60,628 bases of DNA from a virus. Positions 7,974 through 35,744 of this stretch are shown in pieces. The position numbers and the translations under genes were made by a program. The notes below the pieces were generated by a model that saw only the letters and a list, made by a program, of their open reading frames with translations, was not told where the DNA came from and searched no databases. Location: positions 1 to 60,628 of IMG/VR virus record IMGVR_UViG_3300020811_000088; one strand, written 5' to 3'. Position 1 is the first letter of the stretch, and the number at the start of each line of letters is the position of its first letter.

Positions 7974-7983
7974 GGTTTTAAAC

Positions 7984-9843
7984 ATGACTACAGCATACAC
8001 ATCACTCTTGGGCTTGGCACTGCCGGTCACAGGGGAACTCAGTGGTACGTGGGGCGATACGGTTAATAACTCCATCACTTCGTTGCTGGACAGCGCCGTT
8101 GCAGGCACGACCACCCTGAGCACTGATTTGGATGTGACGCTGACCACCACGACTGGTGCAGCCAACACGGCGCGTGAGGCAATTCTCTTGTGCTCTGGCG
8201 CTCGCACAGCGCAGCGTACCATTACAGCTCCCGCCCAGTCCAAGATTTACACGATCATTAACGCCACGACTGGTGGCTTTGCGGTCAAGCTGGTCGGCGC
8301 GGGTCCCACCACCGGTATCACAATTGCCGCAGGCGAATCGGCTGTGGTCGCCTGGAACGGCTCGGACTTCATCAAGATCAGCAACACTGCTGGCGCAGGT
8401 GTTTTCAGTTCCATCACCAATACAGGCTTGACATCGGGCCGTGTGGTCTATAGCACCACAGGCGGTTTGGAAACAGACTCTGCCAATCTGACGTTTGACG
8501 GAACAACGCTTACAGCTAACGCTTTAACGGTCACAAACAACGTCACCCTCTCCGGTGGCACAGCCAACGGAGTGACCTACCTGAACGGCTCTAAGGTTGT
8601 TACTACGGGTAGTGCGCTGACGTTTGATGGGAGCAACCTTACAGTTTCTGCCGGGTTTCTGAAATCAGCTAACGCCGCAGGTTCATCGCTTGCTCGGCTT
8701 GTGCAGACTGGCACATCTAATGGCTTGTACATCACCACCGATGCAAGCTACAACACCATTTACAACGCATCTGGTGCAAGCGGCTATGCGCATATTTGGC
8801 AATCCGGTGATGCCGAACAAATGCGCCTGACCAGCACTGGTCTGGGCATCGGGACGAGTTCGCCTGCTTATAAGTTGGATGTTAGCGGAACAACAGCCCG
8901 ACTTGGCGGTGGCGGTTCCTATCCGCTGTACTTGATCGCGGACTCAGGCGGTTTGCAACTTTTCAACGCTTCTGGCGGCGCTACAGGCGATGGCGTGTAT
9001 TTGAATGGCGCATCGCATTATCTTGGGTTCTATACGAATAGTGCAGAAAAGATGCGCCTTGACATCTACGGCAACCTCGGCCTTGGTGTTACGCCGAGTG
9101 CGTGGGCTTCGACATACAAAGCAGTTCAAGTTGCATACGGAAGCCTATGGACGGCAACCAGTGCCCCTACTTTTGTTTCGGTCAGTGCAAACTCATATTA
9201 TTCGGCTGGTGGGTATACGTATTCCACAACCGGAGTTGCATCGGATTATTATCAGAACGCAGGCGCTCACGTTTGGCGCACAGCTGCCTCCGGCACAGCA
9301 GGAACAGCCATTACTTTCACCCAAGCAATGACGCTGGATGCAAGTGGGAATTTGCTGGTTGGGGCTACATCCCAGTTTGGTGGAGCAGATTGCAAACTGC
9401 AAGGCAAAAACGGGTCTAGTGCTCAATCAGTGTCGTTCCTTTGGAATGCCACGACTACTGGAGATGCTGCTTTTGTTGCGTTTGGAACAGAAACATCAAT
9501 TATTCAGCGTGGTTCAATCACATACAACCGCGCGGGTGGTTTGACCGTTTACAACACAACATCGGATTATCGGGCCAAAGACATTTACGGCCCTATTGCT
9601 GACAGTGGCGCATTGATTGACTCTGTGCCTGTTTACATGGGCAAAATGAAGGGTGCTACACAAGAGCGCCCAATGTTCATTGCTCACGAAACACCATCGT
9701 ATGCTCACACTGGCGAGAAAGACGCAGTTGATGCTGATGGCAACCCTGTGTATCAACAGATGGACGCAAGCGCACTTATCCCTGTGATGTGGGCAGAAAT
9801 CCAATCCCTCCGTAAACGCCTTGCAGACGCAGGCATCGCTTAA
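7984..9843 (+). CDS. Tail fibre/tailspike with C-terminal intramolecular chaperone (peptidase S74-type) domain
   Basis: N-terminus YTSLLGLALPVTGELSGTWGDTVNN; C-terminus TSDYRAKDIYGPI...ALIPVMWAEIQSLRKRL matches the S-D-x-R-x-K autoproteolytic chaperone signature. Confidence 0.75.
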   Translation: MTTAYTSLLGLALPVTGELSGTWGDTVNNSITSLLDSAVAGTTTLSTDLDVTLTTTTGAANTAREAILLCSGARTAQRTITAPAQSKIYTIINATTGGFAVKLVGAGPTTGITIAAGESAVVAWNGSDFIKISNTAGAGVFSSITNTGLTSGRVVYSTTGGLETDSANLTFDGTTLTANALTVTNNVTLSGGTANGVTYLNGSKVVTTGSALTFDGSNLTVSAGFLKSANAAGSSLARLVQTGTSNGLYITTDASYNTIYNASGASGYAHIWQSGDAEQMRLTSTGLGIGTSSPAYKLDVSGTTARLGGGGSYPLYLIADSGGLQLFNASGGATGDGVYLNGASHYLGFYTNSAEKMRLDIYGNLGLGVTPSAWASTYKAVQVAYGSLWTATSAPTFVSVSANSYYSAGGYTYSTTGVASDYYQNAGAHVWRTAASGTAGTAITFTQAMTLDASGNLLVGATSQFGGADCKLQGKNGSSAQSVSFLWNATTTGDAAFVAFGTETSIIQRGSITYNRAGGLTVYNTTSDYRAKDIYGPIADSGALIDSVPVYMGKMKGATQERPMFIAHETPSYAHTGEKDAVDADGNPVYQQMDASALIPVMWAEIQSLRKRLADAGIA

Positions 9844-32578: not shown

Positions 32579-33769
32579 TTAATTGCCTTTGATGCAAAGG
32601 ACTTGTTTGAGGGTGTGCATCACTTCTACGAGATCTGTTTGGTTGGCCATCACTTGGTCGATGTCTTTGTAGGACGCTGGGATTTCGTCGATGACGCCTT
32701 CGTCTTTGCGGCACTCTACGCCTTCGGTTTGGGCGATAAGGTCGGTGAGAGTAAAACGACGTTTAGCTTCGGCACGCGACATAACACGTCCAGCTCCATG
32801 GGAGCACGAACAGTAGGATTGAAGGTCACCTTTTCCCCGAACAATGTAACTGCGTTGACCCATACTTCCTGGGATGATTCCGAGGTCACCTTCACGCGCA
32901 CGGATCGCACCCTTTCGAGTAACCCACATGTTTCGTCCAAAGTGATGTTCTTTTTCAACATAGTTGTGGTGGCAGTTGATTGCTTCCTGTGTGATGGTGA
33001 ACTCGATTGGCACTTCTTTGCGCATGGCCTCGATGACTTGGATCATCATGCGGCGGCGGTTCTCAAGCGCATAGTTCTGCGCCCAGCCCACTGCTGCCAT
33101 GTAGTCGTCGAAGTCTTCGGCGTCCTCTGGAAAGTACGCGAGGTTGTCGTCAGGCAGCGTGATGAAGAACTGCTCCATCTGGCGCTTGGCCTTGGCGATG
33201 TAGTGCGTCCCAATCATGTTGCCGATACCGCGTGAGCCCGAGTGCAGCATGATCCATACGTCCTGGTTCTCGTCAATGCAGATCTCAATGAAGTGATTGC
33301 CAGACCCGAGCGATCCCATCTGGCTTGCGGCCTTCGCATGAAACTTGTCGTAGTCGCCGTTGTACAGCGGGTGAATAACTGTCTTGTACAGCAAGCCGTT
33401 CACCTCACCAATGTCGGTGCTGTCATCATGCGCGCCACCAACACCCAGGGGCACGCGCTTCTCGATCTCGTCGCGCAGAGGCTTTAGGTTGTCTGGCAGG
33501 TCGGACGCCTTGAGTGACAGGCGCACAGCGTTCATGCCGCAGCCAATGTCCACCCCTACCGCGGCAGGGATGACGGCCTTCTCGGTGGCAATGACGGTGC
33601 CCACGGTCGATCCGATGCCAGCGTGTACATCAGGCATGCAGGCCACGCCATTGCTGTTGATGAAAGGTAGGCGTGAAAGGTTCTTTAGCTGGGTCAGTGC
33701 GGATGCTTCCACTTCGTCTGTCCAGATCTTGATTGGACGTGCACCCTCTTCTTGGATGACTTGTTTCAT
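32579..33769 (-). CDS. rtcB: RtcB 3'-phosphate/5'-hydroxyl RNA ligase
   Basis: MPDVHAGIGSTVG, DIGCGMNA, GSGNHFIEI, HSGSRGIGN, CHHNY, TRKGAIRA, IPGSMG, SCSHGAGR; 396 aa. Confidence 0.9.
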   Translation of the reverse strand: MKQVIQEEGARPIKIWTDEVEASALTQLKNLSRLPFINSNGVACMPDVHAGIGSTVGTVIATEKAVIPAAVGVDIGCGMNAVRLSLKASDLPDNLKPLRDEIEKRVPLGVGGAHDDSTDIGEVNGLLYKTVIHPLYNGDYDKFHAKAASQMGSLGSGNHFIEICIDENQDVWIMLHSGSRGIGNMIGTHYIAKAKRQMEQFFITLPDDNLAYFPEDAEDFDDYMAAVGWAQNYALENRRRMMIQVIEAMRKEVPIEFTITQEAINCHHNYVEKEHHFGRNMWVTRKGAIRAREGDLGIIPGSMGQRSYIVRGKGDLQSYCSCSHGAGRVMSRAEAKRRFTLTDLIAQTEGVECRKDEGVIDEIPASYKDIDQVMANQTDLVEVMHTLKQVLCIKGN

Positions 33770-33874: not shown

Positions 33875-34159
33875 ATGCGAGTTGCAGCACGACGAGACGC
33901 GAATGAGGATCAGGTAATGAGTGCGCTGCGTGCGTGCGGCGCCTTTGTCAAGCAGATCAATGACGGCGGTACGTTCGATTTATTGGTGTGGTACAGAGGG
34001 CACACGCTGCTGCTGGAGGTGAAGGATGGCCGTAAGCCTCCGTCAGCGCGCGAGCTGTCGCCGGCGGAGCAGAAGTTCCATGATGCGTGGCCTGGAACCA
34101 ACTTGCATATCGTGCTCAGTCCGGAAGATGCGCTTGAGCTGCTGAAAAGATATGGCTAG
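33875..34159 (+). CDS. VRR-NUC-like PD-(D/E)XK nuclease
   Basis: GTFDLLVWYRGHTLLLEVKDGRKPPSARELSPAEQKFHDAW...HIVLSPEDALELL. Confidence 0.55.
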   Translation: MRVAARRDANEDQVMSALRACGAFVKQINDGGTFDLLVWYRGHTLLLEVKDGRKPPSARELSPAEQKFHDAWPGTNLHIVLSPEDALELLKRYG

Positions 34160-34229: not shown

Positions 34230-34395
34230 CACCAAGACGCATGGGGATTGGTGGCATGGTCGTACAGAGCCAAAAACGATTTAATGCGAATCGTGCCAGT
34301 CCTCAGCCGTGTTGGTGGTGTTACGGGTTAGCGCCGTAGCAGAATTCTGAATGAAAAGAACACTGCTTTATGTGGGCCACCAACAGCCTGTTAAG

Positions 34396-34469: not shown

Positions 34470-34545
34470 CAGTGTGTAGCTCAGTTGGTAGAGCGCGTGC
34501 TTTGGGAGCATGAGGTCGCAGGTTCGATCCCTGTCACACTGACCA
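34470..34545 (+). tRNA. tRNA-Pro (anticodon TGG), CCA encoded
   Basis: Cloverleaf built by hand: acceptor CAGTGTG/CACACTG, D arm GCTC-AGTTGGTA-GAGC, anticodon arm CGTGC-TTTGGGA-GCATG, T arm GCAGG-TTCGATC-CCTGT, A73, CCA. Confidence 0.85.
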
Positions 34546-34664
34546 ATTCCCGATATTGATCCCCTCGCACAAGGGGGCAGTATTTTGCTAAGGACGCAAA
34601 GCGGTCTGTAAAACCGATGCCGATGCGCTGGCCAGGATCGTTACCTGGATGTCCCACCAAACAT

Positions 34665-34740
34665 TCCCTGATAGCTCAGTCGGTAGAGCGCCGGACTGTT
34701 AATCCGTAGGTCCCTGGTTCGAGCCCAGGTCGGGGAGCCA
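34665..34740 (+). tRNA. tRNA-Asn (anticodon GTT), CCA encoded
   Basis: Acceptor TCCCTGA/TCGGGGA (one G-U pair), D arm GCTC-AGTCGGTA-GAGC, anticodon loop CTGTTAA, T arm CCTGG-TTCGAGC-CCAGG, G73, CCA. Confidence 0.85.
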
Positions 34741-34741
34741 A

Positions 34742-34762
34742 AAGCGACATCATGTCGTTTTT
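34742..34762 (+). terminator. Weak hairpin plus T5 after tRNA-Asn
   Basis: AAGCGACA-tca-TGTCGTTT followed by a T run. Confidence 0.4.
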
Positions 34763-34786
34763 CAAATTGATACGTGTTGAAATGTG

Positions 34787-34817
34787 TTGACACGACCCGG
34801 AAATTTGTGGTTATAAT
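34787..34817 (+). promoter_or_regulatory. Near-consensus sigma70 promoter firing into the non-coding locus
   Basis: TTGACA (34787..34792), 19-nt spacer (long), TATAAT (34812..34817); preceded by GTGTTGA direct repeats 10 bp apart (34774, 34784). Confidence 0.5.
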
Positions 34818-34823
34818 CCGCCC

Positions 34824-34944
34824 AGCTAGGTGTGAGAGCCAATGCGAATGAGCCGTTAAGCCTGATCCCGACCCCGTATGGGGTAGTCAAAGTCACAAAC
34901 TTTGATTCTCTCACCGGGGTCAGACTTAACGGCTTTTTTGTTTT
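34824..34944 (+). ncRNA. Candidate ~120-nt structured RNA (three-way junction closed by a 19-bp stem, with intrinsic terminator)
   Basis: 34852..34870 pairs with 34915..33 (one G-U pair, one C-A mismatch). Inner hairpins ACCCC-gtat-GGGGT (34871..84) and CAAAGT-cacaa-ACTTTG (34888..904). Followed by TTTTTTGTTTT. Confidence 0.45.
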
Positions 34945-34945
34945 C

Positions 34946-35084
34946 AAAATACTTGATGATGGTGCGGCGTGGAAGGACACGCAAACCCCAAAAGTCTTGC
35001 CCGAATGTGCCTACGGGTCGAATCACGGACGGAACCGTGGCCGGACAGCCGGAATCAATCCCGGTCACCATCATCAAGTATTTT
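34946..35084 (+). ncRNA. Candidate ~140-nt structured RNA (or MITE-like element) closed by a perfect 19-bp stem
   Basis: 34946..34964 (AAAATACTTGATGATGGTG) is the exact reverse complement of 35066..35084. The interior has GCGTG-gaagga-CACGC (34967..82), GCCCG...CGGGT and CACGG-acggaa-CCGTG hairpins. Confidence 0.45.
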
Positions 35085-35372
35085 TCTCTCACCATCCCAG
35101 CCGTTCTCCTCACGTTAGCACTGGGCCTGCATGGGCCGCGAGGAAGAAAACACCGGCCCTGGTACACCCCCAGATTAAAAGCCGTCCAGCCTGTCAGCGA
35201 GGGACTGGGGAAGATAGAGCGGCAAGCGGTGAAGACAAACGCCCTATCGACGAATCGCTGCCTTATGGGTTTGCTAGGAGAGCACTGTGTGTGCCCTCTG
35301 GGCAGGGAGTGAACAGCCGTGGCTATCACCCTTGGGGGCCGCTGCGCCAAAAATTTTTGCTGAAACGGAAAT
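35085..35372 (+). ncRNA. Remaining ~290 nt of the non-coding locus (structured, function unknown)
   Basis: No SD-led ORF; hairpins include GGGCCG-15 nt-CGGCCC (35133..59) and TGCCC-tct-GGGCA (35292..304). Confidence 0.3.
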
Positions 35373-35404
35373 AAAAAACCCGCCTCAGTGGACGGGTCTG
35401 TTTT
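35373..35404. terminator. Bidirectional terminator (A-tract / hairpin / T-tract) between the non-coding locus and the GIY-YIG gene
   Basis: AAAAAACCCGCC-tcagtg-GACGGGT-ctgTTTT. Confidence 0.7.
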
Positions 35405-35744
35405 AAGAATTAACCGCAAGCTTCAATATCTTTTCTAGGTTTAGCGGTGCGCAGTTGTTCTTCTCGTGCCCGTTAAGGGGTGGATTAAACATGTGGATGT
35501 AAAGCGATTCCAGTACGTCGAGGTGCTCCTTTGGGCATGGCAGTACGGTAAAGCTGTCAAAGTTCTTGTGTGTGTGGGAGCTTATTCTGGAGTAGATGTT
35601 TACTGATTGCCCGACGTAAATAATTTTGTTGTTTGATATGAGGAAGTAAACGCCAGTAAATTTTTGCCACGGCTTAGCGGCGTTTAAGATTGACTCTTCT
35701 GAAACGAGCGACTTGCTGGTTATTTTGTTCGACAACTCACTCAT
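35403..35744 (-). CDS. GIY-YIG nuclease domain protein (homing-endonuclease-like), AT-rich
   Basis: GVYFLISNNKIIYVGQSVNIYSRISSH matches GIY-(10)-YIG...R..H. Confidence 0.6.
   Translation of the reverse strand: MSELSNKITSKSLVSEESILNAAKPWQKFTGVYFLISNNKIIYVGQSVNIYSRISSHTHKNFDSFTVLPCPKEHLDVLESLYIHMFNPPLNGHEKNNCAPLNLEKILKLAVNS

Follow-up and report, generated by a model that had tools for sequence, protein, structure and literature searches.

The window analysed here is a whole stretch of viral DNA of 60,628 nt (IMG/VR record IMGVR_UViG_3300020811_000088). On its plus strand, the interval 34787-35404 forms a promoter-to-terminator locus without a conserved ORF, which directly follows a phage tRNA island and faces a convergent gene. 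The features of the locus and its surroundings are the following:

34306-34392, plus strand: module X, an additional structured module belonging to this RNA system, upstream of tRNA-Pro and outside 34787-35404
34470-34545, plus strand: tRNA-Pro(UGG), in the phage tRNA island directly upstream (ARAGORN and Rfam tRNA model)
34665-34740, plus strand: tRNA-Asn(GUU), in the same island (ARAGORN and Rfam tRNA model)
34787-34817, plus strand: sigma-70-type promoter with -35 TTGACA (34787-92), a 19-nt spacer and -10 TATAAT (34812-17), read from the sequence
34825-34939, plus strand: D1, the 5' domain, a pseudoknotted three-way junction followed by a long stem and a U-tract
34946-35084, plus strand: D2, a tRNA-like module (TLM) inserted between D1 and D3
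35085-35102, plus strand: linker with a second CUCUCACC motif (35087-35094) and a conserved CCCAGCC lead-in to D3, from alignments
35103-35338, plus strand: D3, the conserved 3' core of about 240 nt, with seven covarying helices and two pseudoknots
35339-35375, plus strand: 3' tail (GGCCGCUGCGCCAAAAAUUUUUGCUGAAACGGAAAUAAAAAA), a conserved feature of the sub-clade in which the RNA abuts a convergent gene; it is common to the relatives L116, L173, L026 and L601
35376-35404, both strands: bidirectional intrinsic terminator shared by the RNA locus and the convergent GIY-YIG gene (terminator scan and sequence)
35403-35744, minus strand: convergent ORF with a GIY-YIG domain (Pfam, E = 1e-6)

The promoter and the closing bidirectional terminator named in the original prediction were both confirmed, as were its bounds at the end of tRNA-Asn (34740) and the end of the GIY-YIG gene (35403). 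The promoter had been missed by the automatic scan because this permits only spacers of 16-18 nt; a promoter of the same type lies upstream in 34 of 41 D1 homologues, and transcription would start at about 34823-34825. The terminator hairpin (35376-35399) was detected by the scan on the minus strand and is followed on the plus strand by UCUGUUUU. Folding of the whole 585 nt gave z = -4.36. The locus constitutes a gene of its own, the product of which is a non-coding RNA of about 520-580 nt with a modular and highly structured build, and this RNA is almost certainly a member of a structured RNA family. The earlier view of a non-coding locus for a large structured RNA rather than a gene is thus borne out by many relatives, covarying helices and unconserved ORFs. 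The three helical domains that had been noticed by eye turned out to be three real modules, in each of which the comparison with related phage contigs revealed helices with compensatory changes.

The first of these modules, D1, consists of the following elements on the plus strand:

34825-30 with 34839-45: hairpin P0, with the loop GUGAGAG
34832-38 with CUCUCAC at 34908-14: pseudoknot
34852-69 with 34916-33: long helix P1, which closes the three-way junction with P2 and P3
34872-75 with 34880-83: helix P2
34887-93 with 34899-905: helix P3
34934-39: U6 tract, internal in the locus

All features that define the D1 family are present in the window, namely a promoter-proximal loop GUGAGAR pairing with YUCUCAC, the three-way junction, the long closing stem and the U-tract, the latter being retained in all D1 copies. 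The fold of D1 is very stable (z = -6.99). In an alignment of 31 homologues, 92.8% of the cells are paired and 22 of 39 pairs show compensatory changes, with 12 of 17 pairs covarying in P1; the covariation score was reached by none of 500 shuffles, and all slid controls scored far lower. A profile built without the window found a single match in it, on the plus strand, with E = 4e-36. In the relatives L025, L240 and L243, D1 is combined with a different 3' domain.

The middle module, D2 (fold z = -4.73), is built from three elements, again on the plus strand:

34946-64 with 35066-84: perfect closing stem of 19 bp, the inner 7 bp of which (34958-64 with 35066-72) take the acceptor-stem position
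34967-82: D-arm-like hairpin GCGU-GGAAGGAC-ACGC, preceded by C8-G9
35048-65: T-arm-like hairpin GCCGG-AAUCAAUC-CCGGU, preceded by the variable middle and stacked on the 3' strand

Along the strand, the 5' strand of the acceptor is followed by the D-arm, the variable region, the T-arm and the acceptor 3' strand, and the geometry is that of a tRNA, in that a 7-bp acceptor-like stem and a 5-bp T-stem are coaxial and the D-loop contains GG. At least 120 IMG/VR contigs contain the D-arm 17-mer in exact form, and the T-arm is present in 99 of these copies. Compensatory changes were found at 18 of 22 pairs; none of 500 shuffles reached the covariation score, and slid controls were far lower. Pairing amounts to 98.1% in the 7-bp stem (compensatory changes at 7/7 pairs) and to 99.7% in the 5-bp T-stem (5/5 covarying), and drops to only 61.7% beyond the 7 bp. 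The closing-stem sequence differs in the homologue L026, and the close relative L601 has no TLM. Sister modules in L099, L104 and L136 were called as tRNAs by ARAGORN when relaxed to allow introns; the window's own D2 received no tRNA call from ARAGORN, standard or relaxed, or from the Rfam tRNA model. A mobile inverted-repeat element was also considered for D2 and rejected: there is no second copy in the window, homologues keep the structure with other closing-stem sequences, and the D-arm and T-arm hairpins are conserved in the 99 copies.

The pairings of D3 on the plus strand are:

35107-11 with 35140-44: helix Pa
35124-27 with 35134-37: helix Pb
35154-57 with 35181-84: helix Pc
35159-62 with 35170-73: helix Pd
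35186-91 with 35202-08: helix Pe
35213-21 with 35240-48: helix Pf
35261-63 with 35267-69: helix Pg
35274-302: variable hairpin Ph
35195-200 with 35255-60: pseudoknot PK1
35223-32 with 35326-34: pseudoknot PK2

Across 35 homologues, 90.5% of the cells in the D3 alignment are paired and 33 of 50 pairs show compensatory changes, including pairs in long-range pseudoknots; 0 of 500 shuffles scored as high, and slid controls were paired to 32-45%. A profile built without the window gave a single plus-strand match at 35093-35338 (E = 4e-59). The window contains the whole defining core, i.e. CC-GUACUCCGCACGAWAG, a hairpin, GCGCGGAAG, helices Pc-Pg, PK1 and PK2, with CCUC/GAGG as a compensatory version of CCGC/GCGG. 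Thermodynamically, D3 alone is ordinary (z = +0.73) and its minimum-free-energy fold disagrees with the covariation structure; single-sequence folding is uninformative here, and it is covariation alone that reveals the D3 structure. Two hairpins proposed earlier have to be reassigned accordingly. The bases of the one at 35133-35159 belong to helices Pb, Pa and Pc, and covariation does not support their pairing as a hairpin; the pairing at 35292-35304 does exist, as the tip of the variable hairpin Ph and not as a separate hairpin. In relatives, the stretch from the U-tract to the D3 core recurrently contains a YCAC motif. At some loci, e.g. L163, D3 occurs without D1.

Module X, upstream of the tRNA genes, comprises a closing stem (GUUGGUGG/CCACCAAC), a hairpin UACGG-GUUAGCG-CCGUA and a 3' element (CACUGCUUUAUGUG). 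Its approximately 30 relatives lie directly upstream of the D1 promoter or between D1 and D3, and compensatory changes in their stems were seen by eye, uncounted.

The RNA belongs to a large family of uncultured phages that has no entry in Rfam 15. Pattern scans of IMG/VR detected D1 in 50 contigs and the D3 core, the subtype-A motif and the TLM D-arm in at least 120 contigs each. Between relatives, modules are swapped, inserted and lost. Almost all relatives come from environmental viral contigs. Among GenBank phage records, the only matches were two metagenome-assembled genomes (Manatee Spring), and no cultured phage carrying the RNA was found in the cultured-phage records searched. A 16-mer scan of genome contigs gave mostly chance matches and three true ones, on short MAG contigs (Legionella, Burkholderiales and one other); a metagenome scan with a window-specific 17-mer gave 17 chance matches and one true close relative (L601). 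No description of the window RNA or of the tRNA-like module was found in the literature searched. The terminase gene of the window points only to uncultured aquatic siphophages.

In terms of genomic context, all tRNA genes detected on scanning 76 D3 loci adjoin the RNA on the same strand. The original prediction had further tied the locus to RtcB, nucleases and RNA repair. This part is unsupported: modules of the RNA occur at only about 6 of 80 RtcB loci, where nothing but RtcB is conserved, and the recurrent neighbours of the RNA do not include RtcB. RtcB was therefore rejected as a functional partner, and its vicinity to the window RNA is incidental.

Taken as a whole, the best explanation, which we consider somewhat probable, is a single modular RNA composed of D1, D2 and D3 that acts in trans and carries a tRNA-mimic insert. 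That all three modules are joined on one read-through transcript has, taken by itself, an even chance. A possible alternative, to which we give clearly less credit, is that the locus yields two or three separate small RNAs, these being a D1 sRNA of about 115 nt with its own terminator, a tRNA-like RNA of about 140 nt excised by RNase P, RNase Z or RNase III, and a D3 RNA of about 250-300 nt. The canonical stem with U6 in D1, together with the retention of this U-tract in all copies, speaks for such products, and because D1 ends in an apparently efficient intrinsic terminator, D1 and D3 may never share one molecule. The modules also occur independently and in varied combinations; as D3 is found without D1 (L163) and D1 with another 3' domain (L025, L240, L243), they may have separate functions. 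Moreover, the 7-bp plus 5-bp geometry of the TLM is the ruler of tRNA-processing enzymes, and perfect closing stems of 13-19 bp would resemble RNase III substrates. However, there is neither room nor a conserved promoter between the U-tract and D3, so that D3 must arise by read-through: the U-tract lies directly upstream of the D3 core, within 45 nt, in 73 of 87 loci, with a gap of 10-25 nt in most relatives. A promoter is located 60-330 nt upstream of the D3 core in 56 of 81 loci. In addition, the acceptor-like stem of the window continues as a perfect duplex, a situation known to disfavour cleavage by RNase P.

A cis-acting leader, in which D1 and D3 modify RNA polymerase or act as a riboswitch or attenuator for downstream early, replication genes, is improbable. 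Processive antitermination by an RNA is exemplified by the put RNA of phage HK022, and D1 does always start some 10 nt after a strong promoter, with a terminator behind it that transcription has to pass. Many relatives also have early genes downstream of D3 on the same strand, for a 2OG-Fe(II) oxygenase (22 loci), a helicase, a replication protein or ParB, an arrangement compatible with action in cis. Yet no gene family is consistently downstream, no neighbouring protein family is found in more than 23 of 91 loci, and no Rfam riboswitch model matched in the window. D3 also exceeds known antitermination RNAs in size and intricacy. In the window and in four relatives (L116, L173, L026 and L601), a bidirectional terminator closes the RNA against a convergent operon, which leaves nothing downstream to regulate.

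It is very unlikely that the RNA is a diverged GOLLD, ROOL or YrlA-type Y RNA missed by the covariance models. The resemblance in context and layout, comprising a phage location, tRNA islands, a variable 5' part, a conserved 3' part and a tRNA or tRNA-like linker (for GOLLD, see PMC12286853), and the tRNA mimicry as in YrlA (PMC4201824) would be in line with such a descent. Against it, the Rfam scan that had been suggested for these families, tmRNA, RNase P RNA and introns gave no family match. Searches of Rfam 15 at the gathering threshold and at permissive E-values, covering the window and 49 related loci, returned only tRNAs and unrelated chance matches; the permissive search used E <= 10 on 34550-35500 and E <= 1 to 10 on 17 canonical relatives, and the gathering threshold was also applied to 15 further loci, which were likewise negative. 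The covariance models of GOLLD (RF01998) and ROOL (RF03087) matched neither the window (E <= 10) nor 32 related loci. In the window, the YrlA and Y_RNA models gave no match at the gathering threshold or at E <= 10, nor did the models for group I/II introns, RNase P RNA, tmRNA or riboswitches match, and tmRNA was negative by ARAGORN as well. A weak EGFOA match at 35164-35247 (15.6 bits, E = 4.2) was taken as chance because it does not recur in canonical D3 copies. Furthermore, the published alignments of GOLLD and ROOL do not contain the D3 core motif, and by eye the sequences of GOLLD env-38 and ROOL env-120 look unrelated. The topology and Ro60 adjacency of YrlA differ from those of the TLM, too: no TROVE/Ro60 protein was found in the immediate neighbours or in the ten window ORFs scanned, which include all of 485-821 aa.

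Still less credible is a DNA-level element made of hairpins, such as a replication origin, a single-strand initiation site or a packaging signal. In many relatives the element does sit within the replication/recombination module, between primase and helicase or ParB. Conserved promoters upstream and terminators downstream, compensatory changes in long-range pseudoknots, a tRNA-like module with adjoining tRNA genes and strand-specific wobble pairs (G.U versus A.C 83:24 in D3 on the plus strand, and also 72:13) all argue for RNA instead, and no iterons or AT-rich unwinding region were noticed on reading the sequence. Finally, a protein-coding gene can be dismissed with near certainty: the three long ORFs pointed out before (34832-35374 and 34902-35312 on the plus strand, 34856-35419 on the minus strand) do exist, stay open for 136-187 codons and overlap a region for which the homologous part of GenBank MW202545 is annotated with "hypothetical proteins", but, in agreement with the earlier reading that these are not genes, they have no match in Pfam or PHROG, every frame is interrupted in many homologues including the closest (L413, L091; longest open stretch 38-60 of about 86 codons), the window and L091 differ by frame-shifting indels of 1 and 2 nt, substitutions lack codon periodicity and third-position bias, and in the D1 and D3 alignments sequence change tracks base-pairing and not codons.

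For the single modular RNA, we tentatively propose a trans-acting architectural or scaffold function, or a function as a decoy, making use of tRNA mimicry. Action in trans, without a dedicated protein partner encoded beside the RNA, is suggested because the RNA ends at a terminator facing a convergent gene in the window and the four relatives named above and because no protein family recurs widely next to it. D3 would be the functional core and D1 a promoter-proximal module, the terminator-like hairpin of which would need read-through or be conditional; transcription would thus be likely to yield both the full-length RNA and a short one of about 115 nt. D2 would present a tRNA elbow on a rigid, perfectly paired arm of 19 bp and could in this way engage host factors recognising the shape of tRNAs, such as RNase P, tRNA enzymes, the ribosome or tRNA-targeting defence nucleases. 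Alternatively, D2 may be an architectural arm or a processing site for RNase III.

Large and intricately folded RNAs are rare in bacteria and phages, and to our knowledge each one so far (RNase P, group I and II introns, tmRNA, OLE, GOLLD, ROOL and raiA) is biochemically unusual. The present family adds hundreds of representatives in environmental phage contigs; it combines long invariant stretches with at least three pseudoknots and a tRNA mimic of its own, and neither Rfam 15 nor any of the cultured-phage records searched contains it. It is conceivable, though speculative, that it forms a third, previously uncatalogued class of large "ornate" phage RNA, on a par with GOLLD and ROOL and equipped with exchangeable modules, that the TLM and module X are new and very widespread tRNA-shaped elements of phage tRNA islands, and that the RNA works without a dedicated protein, by assembling into a higher-order RNA particle or by presenting tRNA elbows that trap or redirect host tRNA-recognising machinery. 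If so, this machinery could include tRNA-targeting anti-phage nucleases, and tRNA mimicry by large RNAs would be a general phage strategy of counter-defence or translation takeover. A third, independent example of the GOLLD/ROOL type beside tRNA genes would open the shared logic of these RNAs to comparison in place of study case by case, and the TLM, found separately in at least 120 phage contigs and often in tRNA arrays, provides a handle on tRNA-shaped phage decoys. The RNA measures about 520 nt (380 nt once the insert is removed), a length at which cryo-EM and chemical probing can be applied directly. There is also a consequence for annotation, in that at least one GenBank phage record (MW202545) carries "hypothetical proteins" over the homologous RNA.

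Compared with tRNAs and tRNA-like elements (the tRNA-like domain of tmRNA, viral 3' tRNA-like structures and mascRNA), the TLM shares the 7-bp acceptor-like stem on a 5-bp T-stem, and it resembles tRNA in the two-nucleotide connector followed by a 4-bp D-stem with GG in the loop and in its location inside phage tRNA arrays. It differs in that a variable region of 39-190 nt replaces the anticodon arm, the T-loop has 8 nt in place of 7, position 8 is C and not U, and the G3:U70 pair is lacking. It has no free CCA end, because the acceptor helix often extends past 7 bp (19 bp in the window), and tRNA finders do not call it at normal thresholds. With respect to its setting, the locus recalls phage T4, the tRNA gene cluster of which contains the non-tRNA stable RNAs "species 1 and 2" (rnaC, rnaD), whose function is not known, and also the GIY-YIG homing endonuclease gene segB. 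The T4 RNAs are small (about 120-140 nt), and the likeness concerns the setting, with no homology claimed.

YrlA is a tRNA-mimicking bacterial Y RNA, the partner of Ro60/Rsr in rsr-yrlBA-rtcBA operons; it is found in both bacteria and phages, and RtcB is encoded nearby in Salmonella (PMC4201824). Its mimicry relies on D-arm-like and T-arm-like hairpins, with an acceptor-like hairpin between the T and D arms, and its 5'/3' closing stem takes the anticodon-stem position and bears the Ro60 site (PMC4201824). The TLM has the same two kinds of hairpins but another topology, in which the closing stem is the acceptor stem as in an ordinary tRNA, and RtcB is not a consistent neighbour of the window RNA.

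ROOL is an RNA of phages and prophages located near tRNA genes, about 580-660 nt in length, with multiple junctions and pseudoknots and no known protein partner (PMC5737381, PMC12286853). In size class, phage setting, proximity to tRNAs, junctions and pseudoknots, the window RNA is alike. In contrast to ROOL with its few strongly conserved nucleotides, D3 has long invariant stretches, e.g. GUACUCCGCACGAWAG and CCUGUCAGCGAGGGAC, and the modular insert-and-swap behaviour of the window family is undescribed for ROOL. [quoted passage not shown] The window RNA is laid out similarly, in that D1 is variable, a tRNA-like insert follows and the pseudoknotted D3 is conserved, and it shares the phage location near tRNAs, a resemblance in kind that is not evidence of homology. 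GOLLD is longer (>800 nt versus about 400-750 nt in the window family). A characteristic of GOLLD and ROOL is assembly into homo-oligomeric nanocages. The window RNA represents a family distinct from GOLLD and ROOL. The comparison with ROOL, GOLLD and YrlA made in the original prediction holds as an analogy, in the GOLLD/ROOL-like context and layout and in the tRNA-mimicking middle module as in YrlA, and fails as an assignment of membership in the covariance-model tests. The closest functional parallel would be the GOLLD/ROOL kind of phage RNA.

The locus at 34787-35404 almost certainly encodes, on the plus strand, a structured non-coding RNA that belongs to a large modular family. Its RNA consists of a 5' domain (D1), a tRNA-like insert (D2) and a 3' core (D3). 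The tRNAs, GIY-YIG ORF, promoter boxes, terminator hairpin and three long ORFs were all recovered at the coordinates of the original prediction.

Features of the RNA locus and its surroundings
32579-33769, minus strand: RtcB gene
34306-34392, plus strand: module X, a further structured element upstream of tRNA-Pro, closing stem GUUGGUGG/CCACCAAC
34470-34545: tRNA-Pro (ARAGORN and Rfam)
34665-34740: tRNA-Asn (ARAGORN and Rfam)
34787-34792 and 34812-34817: promoter read from the sequence, -35 TTGACA and -10 TATAAT, spacer 19 nt
34825-34939: D1
34946-35084: D2
35103-35338: D3
35376-35399: terminator hairpin bordered by A and T runs
35403-35744, minus strand: ORF with a GIY-YIG domain (domain match)

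The non-coding character proposed for this stretch is upheld. Translations of all three long ORFs gave no match in Pfam and PHROGs, and in many of the 53 homologues of the 3' domain all frames are interrupted, leaving at most 38-60 of about 86 codons uninterrupted; L413 and L091, the closest relatives, are among these. Indels separate the window from L091 (in D3 of 1, 1, 1 and 3 nt, in D1 of 2 and 2 nt), and substitutions between the two show no codon periodicity (p = 0.16-0.82). In MW202545.1 (L081, 5652-6109), the homologous RNA is immediately preceded by six tRNA genes and followed by a gene for a 2OG-Fe(II) oxygenase. Two ‘hypothetical protein’ CDS (UOF78434.1, UOF78433.1) are annotated over it and are probably mis-annotations.

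Related loci were fetched from IMG/VR by DNA patterns drawn from conserved stretches. The D1-junction pattern was found in 50 contigs, and the D3-core pattern GTACTCCGCACGAWAG, the subtype-A motif GCCTGTYRRCGAGGGAC and the D2 D-arm pattern GGCGTGGANGGACACGC in at least 120 each; an extended-motif filter left 90 unique copies of the D3 core. Three RtcB-anchored loci have D1 in common with the window. Profile HMMs built without the window gave a single match in it each, both on the plus strand: 34814-34947 for D1 (E = 4e-36) and 35093-35338 for D3 (E = 4e-59). The full-locus alignment reveals one modular design, in which a promoter is followed by a 5' domain closing with a long stem and U-tract, an optional long-stemmed insert and a conserved 3' domain. 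A sigma-70-type promoter precedes 34 of 41 D1 copies; a promoter lies 60-330 nt upstream of the D3 core in 56 of 81 cases, and a U-tract is located at most 45 nt upstream of this core in 73 of 87. In L025/L090, L240, L243 and L229, D1 is followed instead by another conserved 3' domain, starting AGUCUAUCGGGUUYUGG...GGCAUGRGGG, so that D1 serves generically as a promoter-proximal module, combined with two or more types of RNA downstream.

The fold of the whole 585 nt beats every shuffle (z = -4.36) because of the first two domains, D1 (z = -6.99 when folded singly) and D2 (z = -4.73); the last 257 nt alone are thermodynamically ordinary (z = +0.73). D1 combines a hairpin with the loop GUGAGAG and a three-way junction (helices P2 and P3) closed by the 18-bp helix P1, which abuts a U6 tract. 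Across 31 homologues, 92.8% of alignment cells are paired and 22 of 39 pairs are compensatory, with covariation at 12 of 17 pairs in P1; none of 500 shuffles attained the observed covariation score, and slid controls were 35-52% paired. The loop forms seven pairs with the junction sequence CUCUCAC, of which six are invariant and the seventh is A-U in 15 and G-C in 14 homologues and paired in all 31. Distant D1 types retain this pairing as GUGGAAUG/CAUUCCAC (L130) or GUGGAAG/CUUCCAC (L129, L165). CUCUCAC(C) is present twice, in the junction (34908-34914) and directly after D2 (35087-35094), and either copy could pair with the loop. The whole-locus single-sequence fold takes the downstream copy, at whose position a YCAC motif recurs in relatives, and a switch between alternative pairings of the D1 loop is possible.

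D3 is defined by seven nested helices and two pseudoknots, with 90.5% paired cells in 35 homologues and compensatory changes at 33 of 50 pairs, a level found in none of 500 shuffles; slid controls were 32-45% paired. In the first pseudoknot, the loop CAGCGA of helix Pe pairs with UCGCUG 55 nt downstream and covaries to AACGA/UCGUU and AGAGA/UCUCU. The second brings the Pf loop CAAG-N-GGUGA together with UCACCCUUG at the 3' end, and its terminal pair is G-C in 20 and A-U in 15 homologues and thus formed in all 35. In the window the core reads CCUC...GAGG, which seems diverged and is in fact the usual CCGC...GCGG with compensatory change. G.U exceeds A.C in both domains (83 versus 24 in D3, 72 versus 13 in D1), which identifies the plus strand as the folding strand. 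The hairpin originally drawn at 35133-35159, which the single-sequence fold also proposes, is not the pairing conserved among homologues. D3 subtypes B and C (L083, L088, L099, L100, L115) contain a second tRNA-like piece, a 7-bp stem AUCAUCA/UGAUGAU around a near-canonical T-arm (ACGG-UUCAAAU-CCGU), which makes an acceptor/T minihelix; subtype C differs from subtype B by a tRNA-like module of the D2 type inserted in the hairpin GGUAUGC-CGCAAG-GCUAGG.

The layout of this tRNA-like module is constant over 99 copies. After a 7-bp stem and the dinucleotide CG comes a 4-bp stem, whose 8-nt loop is GGAWGGAC, and then a variable region of 39-190 nt; the last element, a 5-bp stem capped by the 8-nt loop UAUCAAGC, directly adjoins the 3' strand of the first stem. 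Pairing reaches 98.1% in the 7-bp stem, where all seven pairs show four pair types, and 99.7% in the 5-bp stem, and drops to 61.7% past 7 bp. This is the geometry of a tRNA, with a 7-bp acceptor stem, a 5-bp T-stem and GG in the D-arm loop, in which the anticodon arm is replaced. With introns allowed and a relaxed threshold, ARAGORN called sister modules in L099, L104, L136 and L159 tRNAs and left D2 of the window uncalled. The perfect 19-bp closing stem of D2 had suggested a mobile inverted-repeat element, an idea rejected on account of the 18-bp stem of different sequence in L026 and of family members holding the module inside a D3 hairpin loop. D2 is missing from L601, whose D3 is closely related to that of the window, and was therefore inserted in the lineage of the window.

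As an independent phage element, the module (GGCGUGGAWGGACACGC ... GCCGGUAUCAAGCCCGGC) is very widespread, present in at least 120 IMG/VR contigs (L466-L554, e.g. L552 at 5281 and 5483, L520, L544, L548). Stand-alone copies often lie within phage tRNA arrays; some copies occur in tandem (L552) or nested in long CCAUCA.../...UGAUGG helices (L538, L490, L549). Some contig identifiers resemble those of isolate-genome prophages, judging by the names only. A module-carrying phage contig contains a Burkholderiales-2 RNA (L504, 1542-1615, minus strand; Rfam, 93.5 bits), a hint that some carriers infect Burkholderiales. A true D3 match occurs in a Burkholderiales MAG contig (L328), and L102 has an Rfam match to C4 antisense RNA (7978-8072, plus strand).

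In module X the inner hairpin is UACGG-GUUAGCG-CCGUA, and a second hairpin on the 3' side, CAC-UGCUUUAU-GUG, stacks on the closing stem. The element matches no Rfam family and displays by eye compensatory changes in its stems across about 30 relatives. It is found just upstream of the D1 promoter (L104, L155, L225, L238, L241, L601) or between D1 and D3 (L086, L091, L220, L225, L229, L231, L409, L465); in the window, two tRNA genes separate it from D1. The otherwise unexplained 119-nt spacer between these tRNA genes holds a terminator-like hairpin UCCCCUCGCACAAGGGGG followed by CAGUAUUUUG (34560-34577, plus strand). A conserved U/A-rich tail, UUUUUUGNGCUGACGGAAUUUUUGG...AAAAAAA (35345-35375), links D3 to the bidirectional terminator; it is confined to the sub-clade with a convergent gene next (the window, L116, L173, L026, L601) and could be a 3' extension of the RNA or part of the terminator region.

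About 11 of the 76 D3 loci scanned have tRNA genes nearby; every tRNA gene present in these loci is on the same strand as the RNA, at most 1.2 kb upstream or 1.5 kb downstream of it. Clustering of neighbours from 91 loci yielded genes of a replication/recombination module (ERF-like protein, PD-(D/E)XK exonuclease, primase, helicase, ParB, 2OG-Fe(II) oxygenase), no family occurring in more than 23 loci. The proposed tie to RtcB was not borne out: RtcB is not among these recurrent neighbours, any module occurs in only about 6 of 80 RtcB loci, and around RtcB only RtcB itself is conserved. In the window, the RNA and tRNA island is flanked by a weak endonuclease-like ORF (33875-34159, plus strand; phrog_93, E = 3e-4) and the GIY-YIG ORF. 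Both look like free-standing homing endonucleases parked beside conserved RNA genes, in the manner of segB in the tRNA cluster of T4; a functional partnership with the RNA is improbable. The terminase, whose best match is 56% identical and comes from a lake phage of Gammaproteobacteria, points to uncultured aquatic siphophages; among GenBank phage records, only two Manatee Spring metagenome-assembled genomes carry the RNA, one of them with ‘hypothetical protein’ CDS over it.

We infer that the RNA acts in trans, because it ends at a bidirectional terminator facing a convergent operon (the window, L116, L173, L026, L601) and no protein gene is consistently adjacent. In most relatives D3 starts 10-25 nt after the U-tract, with no space for its own promoter, and so the D1 hairpin and U-tract would be read through or conditional. 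Two products, one short (about 115 nt) and one full-length, would be expected; the chances that a single read-through transcript exists are roughly even. D2 would present a tRNA elbow on a rigid duplex and may engage factors recognising tRNA shape; alternatively, it might be an architectural arm or an RNase III site parting D1 from D3. A mechanism by tRNA mimicry, scaffold or decoy is put forward as a rather speculative option.

As the original prediction had advised, the region was scanned against Rfam 15; cmscan at gathering thresholds gave the two tRNAs only, a permissive search of 34550-35500 (E <= 10) nothing credible, and 49 related loci likewise no credible family match. No published description of this RNA was found in the literature searched, which may not be exhaustive. 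The suggested analogies to GOLLD, ROOL and YrlA hold as likeness in kind or as tRNA mimicry, but not as membership, since the GOLLD and ROOL covariance models are unmatched; the D3 core motif is absent from the published alignments of both, and the sequences of GOLLD env-38 and ROOL env-120 appear unrelated. With YrlA the RNA has tRNA mimicry in common, whereas YrlA is permuted (PMC4201824) and the window RNA keeps the ordinary tRNA order; unlike YrlA, it has no Ro60 neighbour, and the ten window ORFs scanned for TROVE/Ro60, which took in all those of 485-821 aa, gave no match. Like GOLLD and ROOL (PMC12286853; PMC5737381), it is phage-borne, lies beside tRNA islands without a protein partner, and joins a variable 5' part to a conserved 3' part with tRNA or tRNA-like elements in the linker.
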